Positions 24,082 through 40,101 of a stretch of 64,000 nt of DNA are shown here, piece after piece. The DNA comes from a virus (taxonomy: Duplodnaviria > Caudoviricetes). The position numbers were made by a program, and so were the translations under genes. Every line of letters begins with the position of its first letter. Positions within the stretch are counted from its first letter, which is position 1. A model generated the notes under the pieces. That model searched no databases. It saw nothing but the letters and a program-made list of their open reading frames with translations, and was not told the DNA's origin. Location of the stretch: positions 192,001 through 256,000 of the IMG/VR virus record IMGVR_UViG_3300028591_000073; one strand, written 5' to 3'.

Positions 24082-24082
24082 A

Positions 24083-24112
24083 AAAGGAGATCCAAGATCT
24101 CTTTTTTCTTTT
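24083..24112 (+). terminator. intrinsic terminator closing the pseudoknot array
   Basis: AAAGGAGATC-CAA-GATCTCTTT followed by a long T-run. Confidence 0.7.
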
Positions 24113-24280: not shown

Positions 24281-25108
24281 ATGCCTATTGCGAGTATCAT
24301 CTCGGGATTAACAGCGCTTGCGGGAAGTGGTATGGCCGTAGCAAAGATGATTCGAGATGATAAACAATCACGATATCCACCGGAATATCTCATGTACAAA
24401 GACATGATGAAAGATGCTCGGAAATATGGATATCCACCGATGGGAATGATGATACAACAACCATTCATTGCTCCCATGGCACAACCACCACAACCAATTA
24501 TGGTGCAACCAGATTTGGTGAATCAGATTCTTCAGGAATATCAGAAACAACAGTTGTCACAAATGATTGCGAATATGGTCACACAAGCCATTCAGAAACG
24601 TTTGAGTCAGCCGCAACAAATGTATGTTCCCAGAAGACCAGATTATGGTTATCAACCTCAACCTGTCCAACCCATCTCGTATGGATATCAACCTCGGGTT
24701 CCACCACCATTACCAAATCTTCAATATTATGCGGAACCGATGTGGGAGACGCCTGCAGATGGAGTCGCTGTCCAAACTCCACCTCCAGCACCATCCCCAT
24801 ATCAACTTGCCTTGGTTCCAAAACCAATTCCCATGCCACAACCACAGCCTCAACCGTATGTCGCTCCGATACCACCACCGCCTCCGAGTGTGAAGTTCTG
24901 CCAGCCTGAACAATTTGTACAACAGCCACAGCCACAGACACCACTTGTGATGCCTGGTAGCGGAAATATGTATCAATCCCAATTATCATGGGAATCGTCG
25001 AATGCTTTTAATGTCGACCAGAATGGTTTGCAGTCATTTATCTCACATTGTGACAATCGACCAAAGGTTCCTGATAATTATGTCGGGAACACATTAGACG
25101 TGTGGTGA
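24281..25108 (+). CDS. Pro/Gln-rich disordered protein with hydrophobic N-terminal segment
   Basis: RBS AAGGAG; PQPQ/PPPP tracts; N-terminal IASIISGLTALAGSGMAVA. Confidence 0.75.
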   Translation: MPIASIISGLTALAGSGMAVAKMIRDDKQSRYPPEYLMYKDMMKDARKYGYPPMGMMIQQPFIAPMAQPPQPIMVQPDLVNQILQEYQKQQLSQMIANMVTQAIQKRLSQPQQMYVPRRPDYGYQPQPVQPISYGYQPRVPPPLPNLQYYAEPMWETPADGVAVQTPPPAPSPYQLALVPKPIPMPQPQPQPYVAPIPPPPPSVKFCQPEQFVQQPQPQTPLVMPGSGNMYQSQLSWESSNAFNVDQNGLQSFISHCDNRPKVPDNYVGNTLDVW

Positions 25109-25205
25109 TAAATATGAAAAACCGATATGACATACGGATACGAAGTCCGACAAAGAATGATGTTCTTTCGAAATCAAAATTATCAATATTAATGGAGGTC
25201 TTATT

Positions 25206-25577
25206 ATGGATATGCACGCATTATCTTCCGACAATGTAAACGCCATCTTTGATGGTATGGTAGCTGGAGCACAGCAGACGCAAGATGCTTATCAGCAAAC
25301 CATGAATACGTTCCAGAGTACTGTTGGTACGCAACAGCCGATGAATGAACCTCGTCGTGCTGATTATTTCCAACAGACATATCAGCCGAGTCCCGGGTAT
25401 CAGAATGGATTCATCAATCCACAACCTGCTATGCAAGCACCCCGTCAGGATTATGGATTTGGATATGACGAAACATCATATGCAACTCCGTATGGCTCGA
25501 TGTTTGGTGGAGCACCACAGCCCATCTCTCAGGACACACAATATTTTGGATTCTATAATCCCGCATATGGAAAGTGA
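25206..25577 (+). CDS. Gln/Tyr/Pro/Gly-rich disordered protein
   Basis: RBS GGAGG; 123 aa low complexity. Confidence 0.75.
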   Translation: MDMHALSSDNVNAIFDGMVAGAQQTQDAYQQTMNTFQSTVGTQQPMNEPRRADYFQQTYQPSPGYQNGFINPQPAMQAPRQDYGFGYDETSYATPYGSMFGGAPQPISQDTQYFGFYNPAYGK

Positions 25578-25586
25578 GGTATCATT

Positions 25587-25949
25587 ATGACATTCCAGGA
25601 ATTTTGTGATAGATTTGCAAATCCTGAACTGATTGAGATTACCTGTACTGATGAGGTTCCACGTGAATTCGTGGAACCCATCCATACTTTGGTGAATCTC
25701 ATCCGTCTCAAGGTGCAGAGAGCAGATACTATCAAAATCTCATTCATTCAGAACAAGTTTGATGACATGAACGAAGTTCGTCGTATCATGGACGAAGTGT
25801 ATCATGGTGAGGTGAACGAATCCATCTCTCAAGCATTATCAAAGAATCTGTATGGATTGGAATTTGGATTATTAACATCATCGGAGATGGCCATTATTAA
25901 AGTTCTGACCATTTACCTTATGATACAAAACGCAACCAATGAATATTAA
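25587..25949 (+). CDS. hypothetical protein
   Basis: RBS GAGGT; 120 aa within an operon. Confidence 0.75.
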   Translation: MTFQEFCDRFANPELIEITCTDEVPREFVEPIHTLVNLIRLKVQRADTIKISFIQNKFDDMNEVRRIMDEVYHGEVNESISQALSKNLYGLEFGLLTSSEMAIIKVLTIYLMIQNATNEY

Positions 25950-25966
25950 TCAAGGAGGAAATTACT

Positions 25967-26632
25967 ATGAGTATCGTAATGCCAAGAGAAAACAACAAAG
26001 CAGGCTGGCAGCCGCTTCCCAACAAATTTTATGAAATCTCCGTTGGAGACATCCAGAAGTATCTGGAAGATGAAATCCTCGGATTCAAGATTGCAACTGC
26101 ATGGAAGAGATGGACTGGCATCTCCGCATACAGCAGCTATCTTCGTATGAGAGTTGTTCTCTCTCCTAAGGATATCGAAGTGTCTGAACATCGTAATGAC
26201 TATGTTGGAAGAGTACTTCGTGAATATTCTGCTGAAAGAAATCTCAACAAGAATGTCATGGATTCTCTCAAGCCATTTATGTATCCGGCTAACATGAAGC
26301 AGATTTATATGGCACAGAACTATGACAAGCTGAAGCATCTGAATGACCTCGGCGTTGTTGGTGATAAGCTGGATGAACTGGTAAACTGGTCTCAGATTAA
26401 CTATGTTCGTGACAACAATACTGGCAAGGATTATTATAGACTCTATCTGGCTCCTGAAAAGATTGTCTTCGATGGATTGACGAATGCAGAAACCGGTAAG
26501 ATTGATGGTACACTGTATATTCGTAGAATCTATGGTACAAAGGAAGAACAGTTCCGTCTGCTGGTAGAACGTGTATTGACAAATAATAGCGTGACCGAAG
26601 ATTTGAGTGTTGACCAGATTTATGCTCTCTGA
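25967..26632 (+). CDS. hypothetical protein
   Basis: RBS AAGGAGG; 221 aa; followed by a hairpin at 26652-26677. Confidence 0.8.
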   Translation: MSIVMPRENNKAGWQPLPNKFYEISVGDIQKYLEDEILGFKIATAWKRWTGISAYSSYLRMRVVLSPKDIEVSEHRNDYVGRVLREYSAERNLNKNVMDSLKPFMYPANMKQIYMAQNYDKLKHLNDLGVVGDKLDELVNWSQINYVRDNNTGKDYYRLYLAPEKIVFDGLTNAETGKIDGTLYIRRIYGTKEEQFRLLVERVLTNNSVTEDLSVDQIYAL

Positions 26633-26718
26633 TAAATAAACCCATGAAAGCAATGGTGGGGCATTTGCCCCACCATTCTGCTTTATTTAACCAATATCAC
26701 ATGAAAGGATGTGATAAC

Positions 26719-27816
26719 ATGAATGTGATTGAATTAAATGAATTGATTGACTTGACAAATCGTTTTTTTGATCATGGAGCATATCCAACGTTGACAATTG
26801 GTGGTATTGTGGGATCACATCCTTTGTCCCATATATTGGATGTTGCAACAGATATGGTTTCTTTTGAAAGCATCCTCATTGTCGAAGGATGTGGGGACTT
26901 TTGTTATATTCCCAAGAAACCAATTCCGAATTACATCCCATATCAACAATTGTTCATCGACATGTTTGTGGAGAATGTAAAGCCATATGATCCATTTGCT
27001 CCTCGTTTATGGGAAGAGAACCAACCGAAAATCAAAGCAGTTGATCAAGAATTCATCCGTCGATTTCAATTGGTCATTATCAACAATGCACATTTAATTG
27101 AACCAGAAATGTTGCGAATGATTGTAGATGTATGTAAATGGAAATCTGTATTGATCGGAGATCCATTTGATGTGGGTGGTGAACCATTTATGGATGCACC
27201 AACGATTGTCAATTGTTTGGAAAAACAATCACCCATTATTGGAATGGCTCGTAAGTTATGGGGTGTGCCAACTTATGCGATTGACAAAAAAGCTCCTGGC
27301 ACGGTAAATAGTGGAAGAGTCACTCGTAAAGGCATTGGTAAATTGGATGGTAGAACGTATATCTCCAATCATCTGGATTTGGTACAAGCAGTACAAGATC
27401 AACAACGAAAACAAGCCTTTCGTAAAGGTCAGAAATTTTTTGTAACAGATGACAGAATTTACAATATCATGGAAGAAAAGAATCATCAATTGCAACATAT
27501 TACCAAGAATGCATTGCTGATTATGGGTCGTACAAATTCTTTATCACAGATACCACAACAATTTCAGATTCACCATTCCAAATATACGATAAGATGTGAT
27601 GTAATCTATGACCATATTGGAACTTATCCAAATGAATGGGATTATCGTATTAAAGTAAAACCGGCGAATATATTATCTGTGGCAGATGCCAAATATCATC
27701 GATATTTCAATACGGTGTTTGTTTGTATTGGAGATGTGTCTAAACGAGAATTATATTCAGTCATGAAGAATTCTGTTAACTTGACACTATGTGGTGTGAA
27801 AGGAGTGAGTGAATGA
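26719..27816 (+). CDS. degenerate SF1B (Dda/RecD-like) helicase-fold protein
   Basis: Motif order of SF1B helicases with eroded catalytic residues: TIGGIVGSHP (I), VIINNAHLI (II), LIGDPFD (III), QSPII (IV), LSVADAK (V), RELYSVMKNS (VI). Confidence 0.5.
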   Translation: MNVIELNELIDLTNRFFDHGAYPTLTIGGIVGSHPLSHILDVATDMVSFESILIVEGCGDFCYIPKKPIPNYIPYQQLFIDMFVENVKPYDPFAPRLWEENQPKIKAVDQEFIRRFQLVIINNAHLIEPEMLRMIVDVCKWKSVLIGDPFDVGGEPFMDAPTIVNCLEKQSPIIGMARKLWGVPTYAIDKKAPGTVNSGRVTRKGIGKLDGRTYISNHLDLVQAVQDQQRKQAFRKGQKFFVTDDRIYNIMEEKNHQLQHITKNALLIMGRTNSLSQIPQQFQIHHSKYTIRCDVIYDHIGTYPNEWDYRIKVKPANILSVADAKYHRYFNTVFVCIGDVSKRELYSVMKNSVNLTLCGVKGVSE

Positions 27817-28439
27817 AACTATTTGGATTCGATATTGTTCGTTGTTCAAAAGCAGACTATCAAGAACTCGACACATATCAGAAAACCACAGTTGAATTAT
27901 ACAATCGACTTGTGGAATATGGTGACTTTACTGCGAGAATCATTGGAAAGCATGATGATAATGAAGAAGTCGTATTACAAATGATTTTTGAACGAACGGA
28001 GACATGTTGCAAATTGATTTTATTATATATGGCAAATCAATATTCTATTCCAATCACATCGTTATCTGTATCGACACGAATGAGTCAACTTCGACAGCAT
28101 GCTTCACAATTACAACAGTATATCTTACAACATCTCACTGTTCAATCCAGAATGGATGAACATAATGAAGATGCTGAATATGAAGAAGAATATGCAGAAA
28201 TCAGAGATGAATATGAAGATGTGAATGTGAAATATTATAAAGCTCGAGATCATTTGGCAAAGGTATTATATTCTGATATCACAGCCATGATATCTGTTGT
28301 ACAATATGATTTCTTCCAAATCATATTCGGAGTAGATATTATCCGAGATAGAAAAAAACGAACGAAAGTTCCTAAAGGTACACCCGCTTTTGAAGTGAGA
28401 ATCTTCAATGAAATTAAATCTGATAACGGAGGTAAATGA
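27813..28439 (+). CDS. hypothetical protein
   Basis: ATGA overlap; 208 aa, predicted helical. Confidence 0.75.
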   Translation: MKLFGFDIVRCSKADYQELDTYQKTTVELYNRLVEYGDFTARIIGKHDDNEEVVLQMIFERTETCCKLILLYMANQYSIPITSLSVSTRMSQLRQHASQLQQYILQHLTVQSRMDEHNEDAEYEEEYAEIRDEYEDVNVKYYKARDHLAKVLYSDITAMISVVQYDFFQIIFGVDIIRDRKKRTKVPKGTPAFEVRIFNEIKSDNGGK

Positions 28440-28442
28440 ATC

Positions 28443-30218
28443 ATGAGTATTACAATTAATGAAGCAGAAATGATGGGTCAAGGTAAAATGGTGTATGATT
28501 ATACTTCCTTTAGTCACGATAACCATGTGAATGTTATTACGGAACAAGCATTCAAAAAGCTCGTGACAGACACATTCAAAACCATTGTGTATGTTCTCAA
28601 AGAAACCTATGGACCATATGGTTCCAGTATCATGATTTCTGAAAACAATGAAACGACTGCAACGAAAGATGGTTATAACATTTATAATGCACTTGGTTTC
28701 TCTCACCAGTACAAGAAGATGGTATATCTCGCCATCAAGAATATCATTGAAAGAGTCAACAATAATGTCGGCGATGGCACAACCTCTTGCATTTTGTTGG
28801 CTGAAAAGATTTTCAATAAGTTGAATGTACTGGTACAGACATCAGAAGATAAAAGAAATATAAAAGACATTCTTGACCTGATTGAAGAAAATCTTTTTTC
28901 TTCTACCAAACTTGCTGTTGACAAGGGTAAAGATGGACCCATCAAACCTCTCACGGAAGGTTCTTTATATGCATTGCTGATGGTGGCTGCAAACTATGAT
29001 GGGGAGCTCGTGGATTATTTGGTAGATGCACTTTGTCCAGTTTGTCAAGATATCAATGACCCTCGTACACCAATTGTTTCCATGAATAATGTCATCGTGG
29101 ATTCTGAAAAGATGTATGAATCATCTTCTACCACATACAAGGTACAAACATTACCTGGCGATTATCGTATCCGCATTAACATGGATGAAACATTCGCATT
29201 GTCTATTGAGAATAAAACCAAGATGAAAGTTGTATTATACGACCACACATTTGGTGAATCTGAATGGACAAATCTGATGGCAGGAATTGGTGAAGGAAAT
29301 GATGAAAACATCATGATTATTGCCCGCACTTTCTCTGCATCCTTCATGAATAATATGTGGGTTCGTTATTGTGGTAAACGTGCAATGGTAAAAGCAAGTG
29401 TTCCGATTTATCTCGTGGAAGTAGACTCTGGATATTTCCAAGATGAAATTCATGACTTGGCTGCTGTGTTGAAAACAAAATCACATACCATTCACGATTT
29501 GCAAATCAAGAAGGATGAACTTTCCGAAGTAGAACTATCCGTTTATAATTACAATTGTCTGGCATTCTATGGAGTAGAATCTCCCGAGGAATATGTGGAT
29601 GTGCTCCAAATTAAATATGCCAATGAAAAGAGTTATGCAAAAAGAACATTGTTGAGTGACCGTATCAAAGCATTGCAGATGAAGTCCAAGGATTCTATTA
29701 TCACAGTACGTGCGGAATCCACACTGGAACAGAAACTGTTATCTGATAAACTGGATGACTGTATCGCCATTGCAAAATCCGCATTGGAATACGGTGTGGT
29801 TCCAAACATGCTTTGGTACGGATATCAGCGTATCATCAGATTGAATGATGAAGAAGACCACAAAATTCCATTGACATATAAGATTCTCGATGCAATTGCT
29901 GGAAGTATTAAAGAACTCGCAGATGATATCTGGTATTCGAAACACAATAAACCAACCGATGTAGAGATGGTAGAATGGAATGCAAAGAGAAATTCTTTTT
30001 ATGAAAAGATGATTGAAGGAGAATCTTCTTATGATATCATCAATGATGAATTTACAGATATGAGAACACTTCCGACATCAGCGCAGTATGACATGGAAAT
30101 TATTGTGGCATCTATTTCCATCGTCAAGTATATCCTTTCTGCTCGTGCACTTATCTTTGATGCACATCTCATGCGTCCTCAGGGTGACGAAGGTCATTTT
30201 CAATTTAACGGCGATTAA
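28443..30218 (+). CDS. groEL: phage-encoded GroEL-like chaperonin
   Basis: TYGPYG, ATKDGY, GDGTTS nucleotide-binding motif, GVVP; 591 aa. Confidence 0.9.
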   Translation: MSITINEAEMMGQGKMVYDYTSFSHDNHVNVITEQAFKKLVTDTFKTIVYVLKETYGPYGSSIMISENNETTATKDGYNIYNALGFSHQYKKMVYLAIKNIIERVNNNVGDGTTSCILLAEKIFNKLNVLVQTSEDKRNIKDILDLIEENLFSSTKLAVDKGKDGPIKPLTEGSLYALLMVAANYDGELVDYLVDALCPVCQDINDPRTPIVSMNNVIVDSEKMYESSSTTYKVQTLPGDYRIRINMDETFALSIENKTKMKVVLYDHTFGESEWTNLMAGIGEGNDENIMIIARTFSASFMNNMWVRYCGKRAMVKASVPIYLVEVDSGYFQDEIHDLAAVLKTKSHTIHDLQIKKDELSEVELSVYNYNCLAFYGVESPEEYVDVLQIKYANEKSYAKRTLLSDRIKALQMKSKDSIITVRAESTLEQKLLSDKLDDCIAIAKSALEYGVVPNMLWYGYQRIIRLNDEEDHKIPLTYKILDAIAGSIKELADDIWYSKHNKPTDVEMVEWNAKRNSFYEKMIEGESSYDIINDEFTDMRTLPTSAQYDMEIIVASISIVKYILSARALIFDAHLMRPQGDEGHFQFNGD

Positions 30219-30318
30219 TATGTATATGATTAATGTGAATGGGCGGGTTATCCCGCCCAACATTAATTCAACTAACTTTTTGACGAAAGTTTAGAATACG
30301 AATTGGAGATGAAAAGCC

Positions 30319-31812
30319 ATGAAGCAATTGAAGTCAAATATTTATAAACACATCTGTTCTATCTTAGCATCTGATAAAGCAGATTTAAAGAGCTCTCAGA
30401 ATCAAGTGTTATTCTCAAGAGTCATTTCGGAATATCCATCAAAGTCAGTGCATTGTTTATCAGCACATCGATTACTATCTTTCTATGAGAGAAATGTGAA
30501 TAGTGTTTCACTTATCTTGGAGATTATGAAAGATGAAGGGGAAGACGAAGAGATTATTGAGAATATTAAATTCTTACGTGAGAATCCCAGTATCAAAGGA
30601 CAATCTGAAGTCACAAGTCTGTGTGTTATTTTAGCTGACTATGTCAAGTATGCAAAGATATTAAAGGTGAAGAATTCTTTCATTCAAGCAATGGATATGT
30701 TGGATGATGATGAAGCACCTATCAAAGAAACGGTTGACACATTGTACAAGATGTCCAATGATATCATGAACGCATACAATATTGCCAATGTGACAGCCAC
30801 ACAACATACGTTTGATACAAATGACAAGGATGCCATGAAAACAGTAATTGCATCCACATTGGATGCACGTTCAGCTGATAAATGTATCATCACATCCATT
30901 CGAGCTTTAAACCAAATCTTATCACCCGGATATTTGTCTGGATGTTTGTATGTGTATGCGGGATTGCCTGGTAACTACAAATCGGGCATTCTGTTACAAT
31001 CTCATGTGGACACGTGTCGATATAATGAACATCTAAAGAATGTCACACATGGAAAGACACCAATCTCCATTTATATCTCAATGGAAAATACCATGGAACA
31101 GACAGTTCGAAGATTGTGGAGTCTGTTGTTTCCTATGGCTGATATGAATAATTTCTCTGTTGATGAAATTTGTGAGATGATTAATAGTACCTTAACGGAA
31201 AAGGGAATCAGAAGTGTCTTGCTGTATTATGGATATCGAGAGAAGTCCACTGCAGATATTGCGAATATCATTCGTTCATTTAATACAGAAAACACGGAAG
31301 TTGTGGCATTGTACTTCGATTATATCAAGCGAATCAGAAGTGCTCGTACAGATGCAGCTGCAACATCATCTGAAAAGAGTGAATTGCATGCGATTATGAA
31401 TGAATTCAAATTGATTGCTGTTCAATTTAATATCCCAATTGTAACAGGACACCAGCTCAATAGAGTCGCTGCACAAGCAGTTGATGATGCGACTTCTCAT
31501 GGAAATTATGATAAGTCAGCAGAAGTGCTTGGACGTTCTCAAGTTGGTACCGCATTTGAAGTACTTGAAGTATGTGACTTCTTGGGTTTAATCAACATTG
31601 AGAATGCTGGTGATAATAAGTATCTGATGATTAAAGCAGGTAAGCAAAGAGACAAGCAAGGTTCTTCATCAGACCAAGAAATCAATGCCATTCGTCATCC
31701 ATTCTTATCGGTAGATTCCTTTGCATTAAAGCCAGATATCATGGAAAACTGCTCTTTGTCCATTCCAATCTTCTTTGGTAGACAAATGCAAAACTTTGTT
31801 ACAAATATCTGA
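30319..31812 (+). CDS. dnaB: DnaB-like replicative helicase
   Basis: Walker A GLPGNYKS, YISMEN, Walker B YFDYI, IPIVTGHQLNR, KQR finger. Confidence 0.85.
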   Translation: MKQLKSNIYKHICSILASDKADLKSSQNQVLFSRVISEYPSKSVHCLSAHRLLSFYERNVNSVSLILEIMKDEGEDEEIIENIKFLRENPSIKGQSEVTSLCVILADYVKYAKILKVKNSFIQAMDMLDDDEAPIKETVDTLYKMSNDIMNAYNIANVTATQHTFDTNDKDAMKTVIASTLDARSADKCIITSIRALNQILSPGYLSGCLYVYAGLPGNYKSGILLQSHVDTCRYNEHLKNVTHGKTPISIYISMENTMEQTVRRLWSLLFPMADMNNFSVDEICEMINSTLTEKGIRSVLLYYGYREKSTADIANIIRSFNTENTEVVALYFDYIKRIRSARTDAAATSSEKSELHAIMNEFKLIAVQFNIPIVTGHQLNRVAAQAVDDATSHGNYDKSAEVLGRSQVGTAFEVLEVCDFLGLINIENAGDNKYLMIKAGKQRDKQGSSSDQEINAIRHPFLSVDSFALKPDIMENCSLSIPIFFGRQMQNFVTNI

Positions 31813-31908
31813 AAATAATTATTTTCGGTATATGTATAATTAAATTGAGAAGAACCCATACCATGGGATACTCTTCTCAAAAATATTATTTTAAGGAGGG
31901 CTCGCTTT

Positions 31909-32577
31909 ATGAGCATCTTACAACTTCAATCACGGGTGTTAGGTCCGGACACCAACGTGGATTATTCCACAATCATCATGCAGTCGTATCCTGCATTTGC
32001 GATTCAGACACAACCGTTTGTTGGGTTCAAAATCAAATGCCGTGATACACAAGCCGGTCGTATGTATGGACAGCAGGAAGCCAGGGTTAGACAGATTGAC
32101 CAGTTCCTGAATCCACCGCCGAATGCGTATGGACAGCAGCTTCCCATGCCTCTTGCAGGTAGCGGTTGTATCTTGAGAGCGACACATTTCCAGATGCCGG
32201 ATGGGATTTGGGTGATTACAATGCCATCACCCGTTCGCTATCTGAAAGATGAATTGGACAGACTGTTCAAGGTATTGCAGTTATTGGAACAGAGACTTGG
32301 TATTGTATTAACAGGAGAAGATTATGAGATTAATGTCTCCGGTATTTGTCCTGTTAACAATGTTGAGACCACACTTTCAAAACTGAATATCGGACCAAGT
32401 TATATGAAGATGTTGGAAACACCTTCCAACACACCGTTTAGATATGGACATCTCATCCGTATCAATGACACGTATGCTTGCTTCCGTACAAGATGGAAGC
32501 CCGGTATGCTTTATCCGACAAACCTGTATGAGCTGTTGATGACATTATCGACACTTATTTCAGCCATTTTTCATTAA
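31909..32577 (+). CDS. hypothetical protein
   Basis: RBS AAGGAGG; 222 aa. Confidence 0.8.
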   Translation: MSILQLQSRVLGPDTNVDYSTIIMQSYPAFAIQTQPFVGFKIKCRDTQAGRMYGQQEARVRQIDQFLNPPPNAYGQQLPMPLAGSGCILRATHFQMPDGIWVITMPSPVRYLKDELDRLFKVLQLLEQRLGIVLTGEDYEINVSGICPVNNVETTLSKLNIGPSYMKMLETPSNTPFRYGHLIRINDTYACFRTRWKPGMLYPTNLYELLMTLSTLISAIFH

Positions 32578-32596
32578 TCATAAGGAGGAACTTATC

Positions 32597-33370
32597 ATGA
32601 GTAACTATGTAAATCCGGATTATCCGACAAACGTTGGAAGTTTTGCAACCCACACATACCAGGGTCAGCAGTCATACGGCACACCCGGTATGTTCTATTA
32701 TGGTGGTATGGGTTATGGTACCACAGATGTACGCAGACCTGACGGTATGAGTCAGCCTCAGCCGAATTATGGCACATTCACAAATCCGTATGGTTATAAC
32801 CAGCCGCAGTCCGCACCTCCGCAGTCTCAGATTCCGACAGGTGTTGGACAGATGCTGAGTGTGCAGGAGCAGGGCGTACAACCCTTCTCTTCCTATCCGC
32901 CGAATAATGGAACACCTGGATTCAATCAGTTTATGTATGATGCCAGAAGAGCTGATGCAAATGCTGCACAGGCAGTTGGCAATAATCCGTGGGCACAGAA
33001 TCAGCAGACAACGACACAGCCTACCGCAATGCCTATGACGGCTCCGATGCAGCAGTATCCGAATTGTGGTTATTATACACCTGGATACAATGATGCATCT
33101 GCCATGTATCAGTATTCTGGTTATGGTCAGAATCCATTTGAAAAGAAGCCCGGCGTGAATATGTGGGATAATATGTACACACAACCACAGCCGTATGTAC
33201 AGTCCGCACCAAATCCAATGCAGTGGACATCTCCTCAGCAGACTCAGCCGCAGCAGAATATCTACAATTTCCCTCAGGCAACGCCTGGATATAATCCGCC
33301 TCCTCAGCAGCAGGGAGCTGGTATGACATGGAGACAGATGGCAGAACACAGTTGGGACGGTAAATATTGA
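32597..33370 (+). CDS. prion-like Q/Y/P/G/N-rich disordered protein
   Basis: RBS AAGGAGG; 257 aa almost free of charged and aliphatic residues, with spaced Tyr/Trp/Phe. Confidence 0.8.
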   Translation: MSNYVNPDYPTNVGSFATHTYQGQQSYGTPGMFYYGGMGYGTTDVRRPDGMSQPQPNYGTFTNPYGYNQPQSAPPQSQIPTGVGQMLSVQEQGVQPFSSYPPNNGTPGFNQFMYDARRADANAAQAVGNNPWAQNQQTTTQPTAMPMTAPMQQYPNCGYYTPGYNDASAMYQYSGYGQNPFEKKPGVNMWDNMYTQPQPYVQSAPNPMQWTSPQQTQPQQNIYNFPQATPGYNPPPQQQGAGMTWRQMAEHSWDGKY

Positions 33371-33376
33371 TGACTC

Positions 33377-33408
33377 AATGCGGGAGCATATGCTCCCGCA
33401 TTTTATTT
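33377..33408 (+). terminator. intrinsic terminator (CATATG palindrome)
   Basis: AATGCGGGAGCATATGCTCCCGCATT + T-run. Confidence 0.75.
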
Positions 33409-33429: not shown

Positions 33430-34281
33430 ATGGCAGAACAAGAAATGAGAACGTTCCGTTCCAGACTGAACAGTCTACCGTTGGATTTAAAGATAAAGCT
33501 CGGTGAAGTCTCATTTCAATATGGAATGTTACCAACATCCAGAAGAGACAAAATCATCGACTTGTTTAATGAATACCATATAGACTTTAAGAATGTAGGA
33601 ACTGGAACAAATAGGCATATCGTTAGATATGATGGATATGTGATTAAGATAGCATTAGACATGGAAGGTGTTGCAGATAACAAACAAGAATGGGTTATGG
33701 CTGATAAATTAGCACCGCATGTTGCGATGGCAAATGAAATATCACCAGGCGGACATCTGTTGGTTTCAGACTATTGTCCTGCGTTTACCACCTTCTATGA
33801 AATGTGTCTTTATCGTGATTCTATCAGAAAGATATTGGAAGCTTGGAGTAAACAGTTCTTGATTGGTGATGTGGGAATCATTGATAAGAACTATGCAAAC
33901 TGGGGATTGAATGCACAAGGGAAACCCGTGTGTATCGATTATGCATATCTGTTCCCGGTTGGTATGAACATCTTCTCTTGTATTTGTGGAAACCGTGGTA
34001 TGGTTTTGGATGATTCATTCTCCAAATATAAATGTCGTGTATGTGGTAGAACATATCGTGACACGGATTTGAGAATGGCAATCACACAAGAAGACAGATT
34101 AAAGATGTTCCAAAATGTCCAAGGATTGGAAATGAAAGAAGCGGTTGAAAAGCATCCATGTGGTGTCCAATATCGACAGAAGAATTTGAATCCGGATTAT
34201 CCGGATATCTATGAAGTATCAATGGATGTTGCAGAACATCTGTTGGCAACTGGACAAGTTTCGTCGTATTATGATATATGA
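33430..34281 (+). CDS. protein-kinase-like protein with C-terminal zinc ribbon
   Basis: Gly-loop GTGTNR, VIKIA Lys, NKQE Glu, GDV...N catalytic loop, IDYA (DFG-equivalent); CxC...CxxC. Confidence 0.7.
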   Translation: MAEQEMRTFRSRLNSLPLDLKIKLGEVSFQYGMLPTSRRDKIIDLFNEYHIDFKNVGTGTNRHIVRYDGYVIKIALDMEGVADNKQEWVMADKLAPHVAMANEISPGGHLLVSDYCPAFTTFYEMCLYRDSIRKILEAWSKQFLIGDVGIIDKNYANWGLNAQGKPVCIDYAYLFPVGMNIFSCICGNRGMVLDDSFSKYKCRVCGRTYRDTDLRMAITQEDRLKMFQNVQGLEMKEAVEKHPCGVQYRQKNLNPDYPDIYEVSMDVAEHLLATGQVSSYYDI

Positions 34282-35127: not shown

Positions 35128-35808
35128 ATGAATGAGCACGTTTACACATATTCCAAGGAGCAACTGAAAAAAGAACTGGACACTTTGTTGTCTGGAGCAC
35201 CTGTATGGATGTTTCCTGAATTATATGAGGATTTAAAGATGTATGAGATGGAGAATGAAATAATTATGAAAAAACAGAAAGGAGATATCGATGAGGGTGA
35301 ACCACAGGAACAGGAAGAAAGTGGTGACAATTATATCAAGATGGATGGAGAGTATCACGAGTTCGAAGGTGGTGCCATTCGTTATACCAAAACTGGTAAA
35401 GGCAAATTCGATTTGATTCCATGGGAGACTGTAAAGCTTGTTACTGACAAAATTGTGGATGATGATTTATACGAAGCTTACACAACAGAAATGGATGTAT
35501 TAGTGGCATTATCCCAGAGAGATGCAATCGAAGTTATCATTGATATCACAGCTGTGAAATATGGTGAAGGGATGTTCTCTGCAGATGCATTTGCATGGAT
35601 GCTCCGTGACTTGGCTGTCCATTATGAAAAGGGAGCTGAGAAATATGGAGTTGATAACTGGAAGAAGGGTATTCCTGCGTCTTCCTTCTGGGATTCTGGT
35701 TGTCGTCACACTTGTCAGTTTATCAATGGATTGGAAGATGAACCGCATTGGATTTCTGCTATTTGGAACATGCTTGGATACCTGTGGACAATAAATAAGA
35801 AAAATTGA
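35128..35808 (+). CDS. dATP/dGTP diphosphohydrolase domain protein (DUF5664-like)
   Basis: FEGGAIR...GKGKFDLIP...GAEKYGVDNWKKGIP...DSGCRH...EPHWISAIWN. Confidence 0.8.
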   Translation: MNEHVYTYSKEQLKKELDTLLSGAPVWMFPELYEDLKMYEMENEIIMKKQKGDIDEGEPQEQEESGDNYIKMDGEYHEFEGGAIRYTKTGKGKFDLIPWETVKLVTDKIVDDDLYEAYTTEMDVLVALSQRDAIEVIIDITAVKYGEGMFSADAFAWMLRDLAVHYEKGAEKYGVDNWKKGIPASSFWDSGCRHTCQFINGLEDEPHWISAIWNMLGYLWTINKKN

Positions 35809-40075: not shown

Positions 40076-40101
40076 TATCAAATAAATCATATCTATATGA
40101 A
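40076..40101 (-). promoter_or_regulatory. putative early promoter motif, copy 6
   Basis: Minus strand reads TTCATATAGATATGATTTATTTGATA with upstream TTCTATTATT. Confidence 0.6.

Follow-up and report, generated by a model that had tools for sequence, protein, structure and literature searches.

Three low-complexity protein families with a conserved twin-arginine motif in an uncultured AR9/PBS1-like jumbo phage

Introduction

The subject of this report is a group of three genes, designated A, B and C, in a virus genome catalogued as IMGVR_UViG_3300028591_000073. The DNA that was analyzed, referred to throughout as 'the window', is a stretch of 64,000 nucleotides corresponding to bases 192,001-256,000 of this genome, which is 294,548 bp long and is scored by CheckV as 100% complete. 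The genome is that of an AR9/PBS1-like jumbo phage, uncultured, from the rumen; its DnaB and chaperonin are closest to those of the Bacillus phages AR9, PBS1 and BpSp and of Staphylococcus jumbo phages, at 21-33% identity. An original prediction, made from the letters of the sequence, had singled out the three genes as encoding prion-like proteins with the short motif RR[P/A]D in common, and had proposed that they form a condensate, or scaffold, that organizes a replication factory. We describe here the composition and conservation of these proteins, how the motif varies across their relatives, and what the motif might be for. Positions are those of the window unless stated otherwise, and '+' denotes the strand that was read. 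The genes and motifs in question are the following.

24281..25108, + strand: gene A, 275 residues; an N-terminal hydrophobic anchor, then Pro/Gln/Tyr-rich low complexity; the first gene after a terminator at 24082-24106
24287..24352, + strand: membrane-type helix of A, residues ~3-24; Kyte-Doolittle 19-residue maximum 1.68
24632..24643, + strand: motif of A, V-P-R-R-P-D, residues 118-121
25206..25577, + strand: gene B, 123 residues
25353..25364, + strand: motif of B, E-P-R-R-A-D, residues 50-53; additionally RQDY at residue 80
32597..33370, + strand: gene C, 257 residues, predicted disordered with conserved short islands; the last gene before a terminator
32732..32743, + strand: first motif of C, D-V-R-R-P-D, residues 46-49
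32945..32956, + strand: second motif of C, D-A-R-R-A-D, residues 117-120

Composition and predicted disorder

All three reading frames are present as predicted, and their products are indeed rich in Gln, Pro, Tyr and Gly and low in charge. A is 17.8% Pro and 13.5% Gln, with eight Arg in 275 residues; B is 14.6% Gln and 8.9% Tyr, with three Arg in 123; and C is 14.4% Gln, 13.2% Pro, 10.1% Gly and 9.3% Tyr, with five Arg in 257. Each protein contains 7-13% charged residues, 9-15% aromatics, 17-23% Gln plus Asn, 9-18% Pro and approximately 6% Met. Among the 685 ATG-started open reading frames (ORFs) of at least 60 residues in the whole genome, A, B and C rank first to third in their content of Gln, Pro, Tyr, Gly and Asn combined (0.45-0.56). 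For C, the disorder that such composition suggests is borne out by AlphaFold2: run on a 64-sequence alignment, it returned a mean pLDDT (predicted local distance difference test) of 50.1, a pTM (predicted template modeling score) of 0.16, and three short helices only. C is thus predicted to be intrinsically disordered, and A and B are probably so as well, judging from what they are made of. The aromatic residues, on the other hand, are not 'spaced' as the original prediction had it. The coefficient of variation of the gaps between them, compared with shuffled sequences, gives z = -1.1 for A, 0.1 for B and 0.0 for C, the gaps in B and C being no more regular than in the shuffles. The family means (+0.5, +0.1 and -0.6 for A, B and C) likewise reveal gaps no more even than chance.

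B has a recognizable layout, comprising a conserved N-terminal stretch of ~40 residues, a Gln/Tyr/Gly/Pro-rich region that includes a YGYGY-type block, and GF-x-NP-x-YGK at the C-terminus. None of the three proteins matches an entry in Pfam or PHROGs, tblastn against 50,697 phage records found nothing, and the ESM Atlas gave no usable match. A further protein, ORF 45197, had been credited with an N-terminal tail of the same kind. The tail exists (~35 residues rich in Gln, Pro, Tyr and Met); it has no RR motif.

The twin-arginine motif

RR[P/A]D occurs in each of these Arg-poor proteins, as predicted: once in A, once in B and twice in C. These four occurrences are the only ones among the 685 ORFs. 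Of the 307 ORFs of at least 100 residues, which together hold ~100,050 residues and 170 RR dipeptides, these three are also the only ones to match any of the broader patterns [DEQ][SA]RR, [SAPV]RR[NAPQ][DM] and [DE]xRRxD. From each protein's own composition, 0.002 (A), 0.0008 (B) and 0.0006 (C) occurrences of RR[PA]D are expected, against 1, 1 and 2 observed, and for RR alone the three per-protein shuffle probabilities multiply to ~2e-5; the motif was defined after being seen, however, so these chance figures are upper bounds on significance, and conservation among homologs is the stronger argument. The second site of C falls within a low-confidence short helix (residues 110-119), after a conserved GFNxΦΦ stretch.

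Twin arginines are also the hallmark of the signals for twin-arginine translocation (Tat), and this identity was considered and rejected. The motifs lie at residues 46-121 with no hydrophobic h-region after them, and in B and C the Kyte-Doolittle maximum is at most 1.11.

Relatives and conservation

Taking DnaB as the anchor, we gathered relatives of the window from viral and metagenome contigs, 34 loci in all, whose DnaB identity runs from 99% down to 44%. In approximately 25 related contigs, from rumen and gut phages, A, B and C are all present and occupy the same gene positions. Iterated profile searches identified homologs of C in 23 of the loci and homologs of B in 17, and in every B-bearing locus a gene with the layout of A stands directly upstream of B. 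All three gene types are present even in the most distant loci (DnaB 44-52% identical), where the motif takes forms such as DSRRNP, MSRRDL, ESRRYT and QSRRNM. Large protein collections add further members: there the C family forms 54 clusters when grouped at 90% identity and has at least 114 representatives at 50%, all of them unnamed metagenomic proteins of 200-270 residues, on contigs of up to 290 kb, and the B family gains 13 members beyond the loci.

The twin arginines are kept throughout C. Among 141 unique full-length members of the family, which span 114 clusters at 50% identity, 136 have at least one RR and 117 at least two, and 64% of all Arg residues lie in RR pairs. In an alignment with a mean column identity of 28%, few columns come close to invariance, and R46, R47, R117 and R118 belong to those few; the family logo reads [VTPA]-[DE]-[SA]-R-R-[NA]-[DMI]-[GPA], and the remotest members retain YSRRN, DSRRS or PSRRQD. 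Of the 26 B-family proteins, 19 contain a single RR, which always occupies the same column of the alignment. In the A family the motif is optional and is present in 0-4 copies (e.g. ESRRFM, QSRRYT and DSRRFS). The consensus core across the families is [DE]-[SAP]-R-R-[NAP]-[DMI], and the position after R-R-x is seldom Ser or Thr. The form RRxD given by the original prediction needs qualification: the RR core is conserved, but approximately one-third to one-half of sites have Asp at +3, and only in the clade of the window itself is this residue the rule.

RR sites are written with 11 different codon pairs, which points to selection on the protein and rules out an explanation at the nucleotide level. 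When the B and C family profiles are compared with hhalign, only nine residues around the motif align; the motif is thus common to the two families, and common ancestry is not detectable. The C profile found no match in AR9, BpSp or PALS_2, and B was likewise not found there. The three genes thus belong to the core of a single uncultured clade. The families are undescribed so far as sequence libraries tell, none of those searched providing an annotation. The search returned no longer, fused C-like proteins, which is weak evidence, and a scan of viral contigs with a remote C homolog, P0054, gave no match. The BpSp 'tryptophan repeat' protein gp045, which adjoins DnaB and was tried as a counterpart, proved to be an unrelated helical repeat.

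Other short stretches are conserved at the C-termini. In A-family members, as seen in L002, L022 and L030 (window 25040-25108), the stretch is (M/A)F-x-(V/L)D-x-x-G-x-(P/L), and many A and B homologs end in G-x-W. These may be additional short motifs.

Co-variation of the motif

The form that the motif takes changes in step in the three families. In the window's clade (the window itself, WIN, with L010, L001, L012/13, L014 and L020), the residue at -1 is Pro, Ala or Val and the residue at +3 is Asp, in A, in B and at both sites of C, with one exception (ARRAG in L020). In other lineages S-R-R-N is found in B and C alike, and in L003, L018 and L022 both proteins have SRRNM. Losses coincide as well: in L017 and L026, RR is missing from B and C together (these two lineages are represented by contigs Ga0326511_10000001 and OCTX012281243.1). 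A maximum-likelihood tree of DnaB places L017 as sister to the window's clade (support 91/91) and L026 elsewhere. The two are not sisters, so the joint loss occurred twice, independently. With ~13 lineages that have both genes and two losses per family, simple arithmetic puts the chance that the losses coincide at ~1 in 78. Flavor and losses that move in step across A, B and C are the pattern expected of one common reader.

The membrane anchor of A

A differs from B and C in having a hydrophobic segment at its N-terminus; the Kyte-Doolittle 19-residue maxima of the other two, cited above, denote no such segment. It is present in every full-length A homolog, with maxima of 1.24 in L001, the closest relative, and 1.7-2.4 in the others. 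In A of the window, no Lys or Arg precedes the helix and four follow within 15 residues; full-length homologs mostly have none before and two to four after. By the positive-inside rule, basic residues on the C-terminal side predict that the disordered part of A is cytoplasmic, and so A would be anchored by its N-terminus with its chain facing the cytoplasm.

Elsewhere in the genome, at 96107-96724 (~95.3-95.9 kb before the start of the window), there is an ORF for a 205-residue, Gln/Pro-rich protein that lacks RR and has its hydrophobic anchor at the C-terminus. This protein, too, may be of low complexity and tethered to the membrane.

The neighboring kinase and a second motif

The gene that follows C encodes a protein with which C has a different short motif in common. 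The features concerned are these.

33430..34281, + strand: kinase-like gene, 283 residues, directly downstream of C
32612..32626, + strand: N-P-D-Y-P near the N-terminus of C, residues 6-10
34189..34203, + strand: N-P-D-Y-P near the C-terminus of the kinase-like protein, in a tail loop

Sequence profiles (PDB and Pfam) were uninformative for ORF 33430. Its predicted structure has a mean pLDDT of 76.6, and the PDB matches that Foldseek listed for it are all protein kinases or kinase-containing complexes (RIO2, PRPK, JAK2, Aurora A and others). The Gly-loop GTGTNR (G57-R62), Lys73, Glu87, Asp147, Asn154 and Asp170 are invariant in 17 homologs. On its modeled fold, then, this is a minimal protein-kinase-like protein, of RIO/Bud32 size. 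A profile of it, run against the whole genome, matches only itself; no kin are detectable among the other proteins. The gene directly follows C in the relatives for which that region was recovered.

In a six-frame translation (reading frames of at least 60 codons), NPDYP occurs twice, in C and in the adjacent kinase. The kinase copy, NPDYPD, falls in the sole stretch of three or more residues of that protein with pLDDT below 50 (residues 247-259). [ND]-P-D-x-P is conserved in both families: [NDHS]P[DE]xP is found within the first 30 residues of 122 of the 141 C proteins, and in the clade of L003, L004, L018 and L024 the first residue is Asp in C and kinase alike. L017 and L026, which lack RR, retain both the kinase and NPDxP.

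Two other elements of the kinase-like protein deserve mention, namely a CxCG...CxxC zinc-ribbon after the kinase core, and a conserved [ST]-S-R-[RK] near residue 36. The latter is in a region modeled as helical and is probably unrelated to the disordered RR motif.

Genomic setting and expression signals

The genes belong to two units framed by terminators. One comprises A, B and two further genes; the other is longer, and ends with a 222-residue ORF and C.

24082-24106: terminator preceding the unit of gene A
25587..26632, + strand: two further genes of the A-B unit, 120 and 221 residues
26652-26677: terminator closing the A-B unit
33377..33402, + strand: strong intrinsic terminator closing the unit that ends in C; 11-bp stem with seven G-C pairs, and a T-run

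Strong ribosome-binding sites of the GGAGG type precede all of these genes. The most over-represented intergenic 9-mers of the genome are hairpin tops of the GGCATATGCC type (22 copies, e.g. at 33377-33402), which points to one stereotyped terminator family. The surroundings of A, B and C include genes for chaperonin, DnaB and a tubulin; these are replication-type units, with no head module. The chaperonin and DnaB named by the original prediction as neighbors are there, and the kinase that it also named is confirmed by its fold. Further downstream, at 35128-35808, a 226-residue ORF matches PF18909 (dATP/dGTP diphosphohydrolase, N-terminal domain; E 5e-12) and phrog_801, and may be a nucleotide-pool or base-modification gene. 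By megablast the window has zero matches among the 50,697 phage records.

The analogy that had been drawn with the compartments of phiKZ-like phages failed. A search of the genome for chimallin, with Pfam PF25677 and with phiKZ gp54 at E-values of up to 10, gave no match. This agrees with what is reported of the PBS1 lineage, whose phages have multisubunit RNA polymerases and lack chimallin (PMC10299810).

An early-promoter-like element of the AR9 type, TTCTATTATT, spacer, ATATAGATATCAT-TAATAT-G, is present in ~20 copies genome-wide; the early promoter element of AR9 itself is AAATATATATTAT-N6-G (PMC5312081). Copies in the window lie near 2160, 7393, 19171, 22032, 22988, 55637 and 56554 (rightward) and near 40076 (leftward). 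Upstream of A, between 24140 and 24260, there is instead a hairpin-like TTGACC...GGTCAA element and an ATATATA block, ~45 nt before a conserved AAAGGAG ribosome-binding site. This upstream block recurs in L001, L002, L005, L013 and L026 and exists as a single copy in the genome of the window; it is a possible promoter or regulatory element.

Interpretation

We favor the view that A, B and C are three co-inherited disordered proteins whose twin-arginine motif docks one common reader, and that together they form a membrane-tethered assembly coupled to the kinase. We place the probability of this at roughly 0.55. Each of the three proteins would display [DE]-[SAP]-R-R-[NAP]-[DMI] as a docking site for a single reader, which could be a phage or a host protein. 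The helix at the N-terminus of A would fix this protein in the cytoplasmic membrane and leave its disordered chain on the cytoplasmic side; B and C would be soluble. The reader, possibly helped by Tyr/Arg contacts among A, B and C, would gather them into a multivalent assembly at the membrane, and the [ND]-P-D-x-P that C shares with the tail loop of the kinase would tie the kinase to this assembly, in which it could be a competitor, co-client or regulator. What we infer is that a reader is shared, how A is oriented in the membrane, and whatever part these proteins play in organizing replication. The idea of a common docking motif, already raised by the original prediction, has been strengthened: the motif is a conserved, protein-level short linear motif in three otherwise unrelated families, and it co-evolves across them. 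That prediction had overlooked the anchor of A, the wider motif consensus and the NPDxP link from C to the adjacent kinase.

Several points weigh against this view. The motif shifted in flavor only once, and it was jointly lost only twice, so that independent events are few; if recombination occurred, the DnaB tree may also misstate the history of A, B and C. The motif is missing from several A homologs, including that of the close relative L001, and A may not always participate. The AlphaFold runs covered C and the kinase, and the disorder of A and B rests on composition. When 11 syntenic families were scanned for positions that are invariant where RR is present and changed in both RR-less lineages, nothing above expectation emerged, and no reader was found. 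Finally, the region upstream of A has neither the AR9-type early element nor a clear late element of the form AACA-N6-T[AG].

Other explanations draw on many of the same observations. Closest to the original prediction is that the three proteins act as sticker-and-spacer scaffolds and build, by phase separation, a replication-factory condensate, tethered to the membrane by A, in a phage with a tubulin and no chimallin shell. Their prion-like composition and the predicted disorder of C fit this, as do the several copies of the motif across three proteins, one of them with a membrane tether, and the position of the genes among those for chaperonin, DnaB and tubulin in a genome in which no chimallin was found. 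A phage-encoded condensate-forming protein, ChmC, is moreover reported in chimalliviruses (10.1101/2023.09.22.559000). Yet the aromatic gaps are no more uniform than in shuffles, Pro is high, there is no RNA- or DNA-binding domain, and in jumbo phages the neighbors of a gene say little about what it does. The short islands, above all, are sharply conserved, which fits specific binding better than generic stickiness. We consider such a condensate unlikely, if still worth some weight. Slightly less probable is that the three are host-takeover or envelope factors, unrelated to replication, whose motif binds a host protein at the membrane, e.g. one of the division, secretion or proteolysis machinery. 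The anchor of A, the confinement of the families to one phage clade, as would suit adaptation to one host group, and the failure to find a reader among the 11 neighboring phage families speak for it; but no match of the motif to a described host-binding peptide was found, and the resemblance to Tat signals (S-R-R-x-F) fails for the reasons given above.

The kinase itself might be the reader. R-R-x-S/T is the classical consensus of basophilic kinases, and R-R-N-A is the pseudosubstrate of PKI, and we take this as a lead only. R-R-x-[D/A/M] would then be a docking or pseudosubstrate site for such a kinase, the adjacent phage enzyme being the first candidate, and A, B and C would be its clients or regulators. 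The kinase-fold gene does lie directly after C, NPDxP is common to both proteins, and the residue after R-R-x is rarely one that could be phosphorylated. But the kinase has no changes specific to the lineages without RR, L017 and L026 keep it, with NPDxP, after RR has gone, and the likeness to the motifs of protein kinase A (PKA) extends to three or four residues only, all of which makes the proposal doubtful. More ambitiously, the triad could be a compartment-builder of AR9/PBS1-like phages, a membrane-tethered, kinase-regulated condensate that concentrates the replication machinery as a shell-less alternative to the phage nucleus. If true, such a compartment would serve phages that lack a chimallin shell and encode a tubulin and RNA polymerases of their own; we judge it improbable. 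Least probable of all, and very unlikely indeed, is that the three are internal proteins of the virion, or ejection proteins, cut at the motif by a head-maturation or other protease, the option that the original prediction had itself left standing. Phage internal and ejection proteins are often of low complexity, some have membrane segments, and several unrelated proteins with one short motif in common are what such processing would produce. However, described prohead proteases (T4, phiKZ) cut after Glu, and this motif is not Glu-based. Being internal, it does not close an N-terminal leader; the genes belong to replication-type units rather than head modules; and no relative of the kinase next to C can be detected among the other proteins of the genome. 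Most tellingly, no other ORF of at least 100 residues carries the motif, and so neither a capsid nor a portal nor a scaffold-type carrier exists for it, which makes cleavage by a head protease unlikely.

Should a common reader be confirmed, its identity would show what the module is for in this clade, and would bear on how infection is organized in jumbo phages without a chimallin nucleus.

Comparison with known systems

Several described systems resemble parts of this arrangement. Tat signal peptides (S-R-R-x-F-L-K) resemble the S-R-R-x-F/M of many members of the A, B and C families, but they are N-terminal and are followed by an h-region, whereas the phage motifs lie at residues ~45-120 and have none. 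Basophilic kinase substrates and PKI share with the phage proteins the twin Arg and, with a kinase gene adjacent, a mostly non-phosphorylatable residue two positions on; the resemblance spans the few residues already noted, and the phage kinase has a minimal, RIO/Bud32-sized fold. The internal proteins of T4 and the inner-body proteins of phiKZ, processed by prohead proteases, are likewise unrelated small proteins with one short motif, and differ in the location, chemistry and distribution of that motif, and in their setting: in A, B and C it is internal, not Glu-based and in no other ORF of at least 100 residues, and there is no head module.

Prion-like domains of the FUS/hnRNPA1 type are similar in their low charge, in having 9-15% aromatics among Gln/Asn/Gly/Pro/Ser/Thr spacers and, for C, in predicted disorder. 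The phage proteins differ by their high Pro and Met and by having no nucleic-acid-binding domain, and the families differ by their sharply conserved short motifs and by aromatic gaps no more even than chance. The phage nucleus of the Chimalliviridae has the chimallin gene as its hallmark; here none was found, and a tubulin is present. ChmC, of the same family, is reported as a nucleus-associated RNA-binding protein, proposed to organize phage macromolecules by condensation, much as was proposed for A, B and C (10.1101/2023.09.22.559000); it was the single jumbo-phage protein linked to condensates that the literature search turned up. It binds RNA and comes from chimallin-encoding phages, and no sequence relationship is claimed.

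Also comparable are p16.7 and p1 of Bacillus phage phi29, membrane-anchored replication organizers in a phage of a Gram-positive-type host. A is like them in its N-terminal anchor, in the predicted cytoplasmic location of the remainder and in its proximity to replication genes; p16.7 has a folded, DNA-binding dimer domain where A is of low complexity, and there is no sequence similarity. In its principle, finally, the arrangement is a variant of something familiar, namely disordered proteins of viruses that work by way of short linear motifs. Such motifs on disordered proteins are one of the main means by which eukaryotic viruses connect to their cells, and are barely charted in phages. The genes described here would be a clean phage case: three unrelated core families with one co-evolving motif, a membrane tether, and a kinase with a second motif.

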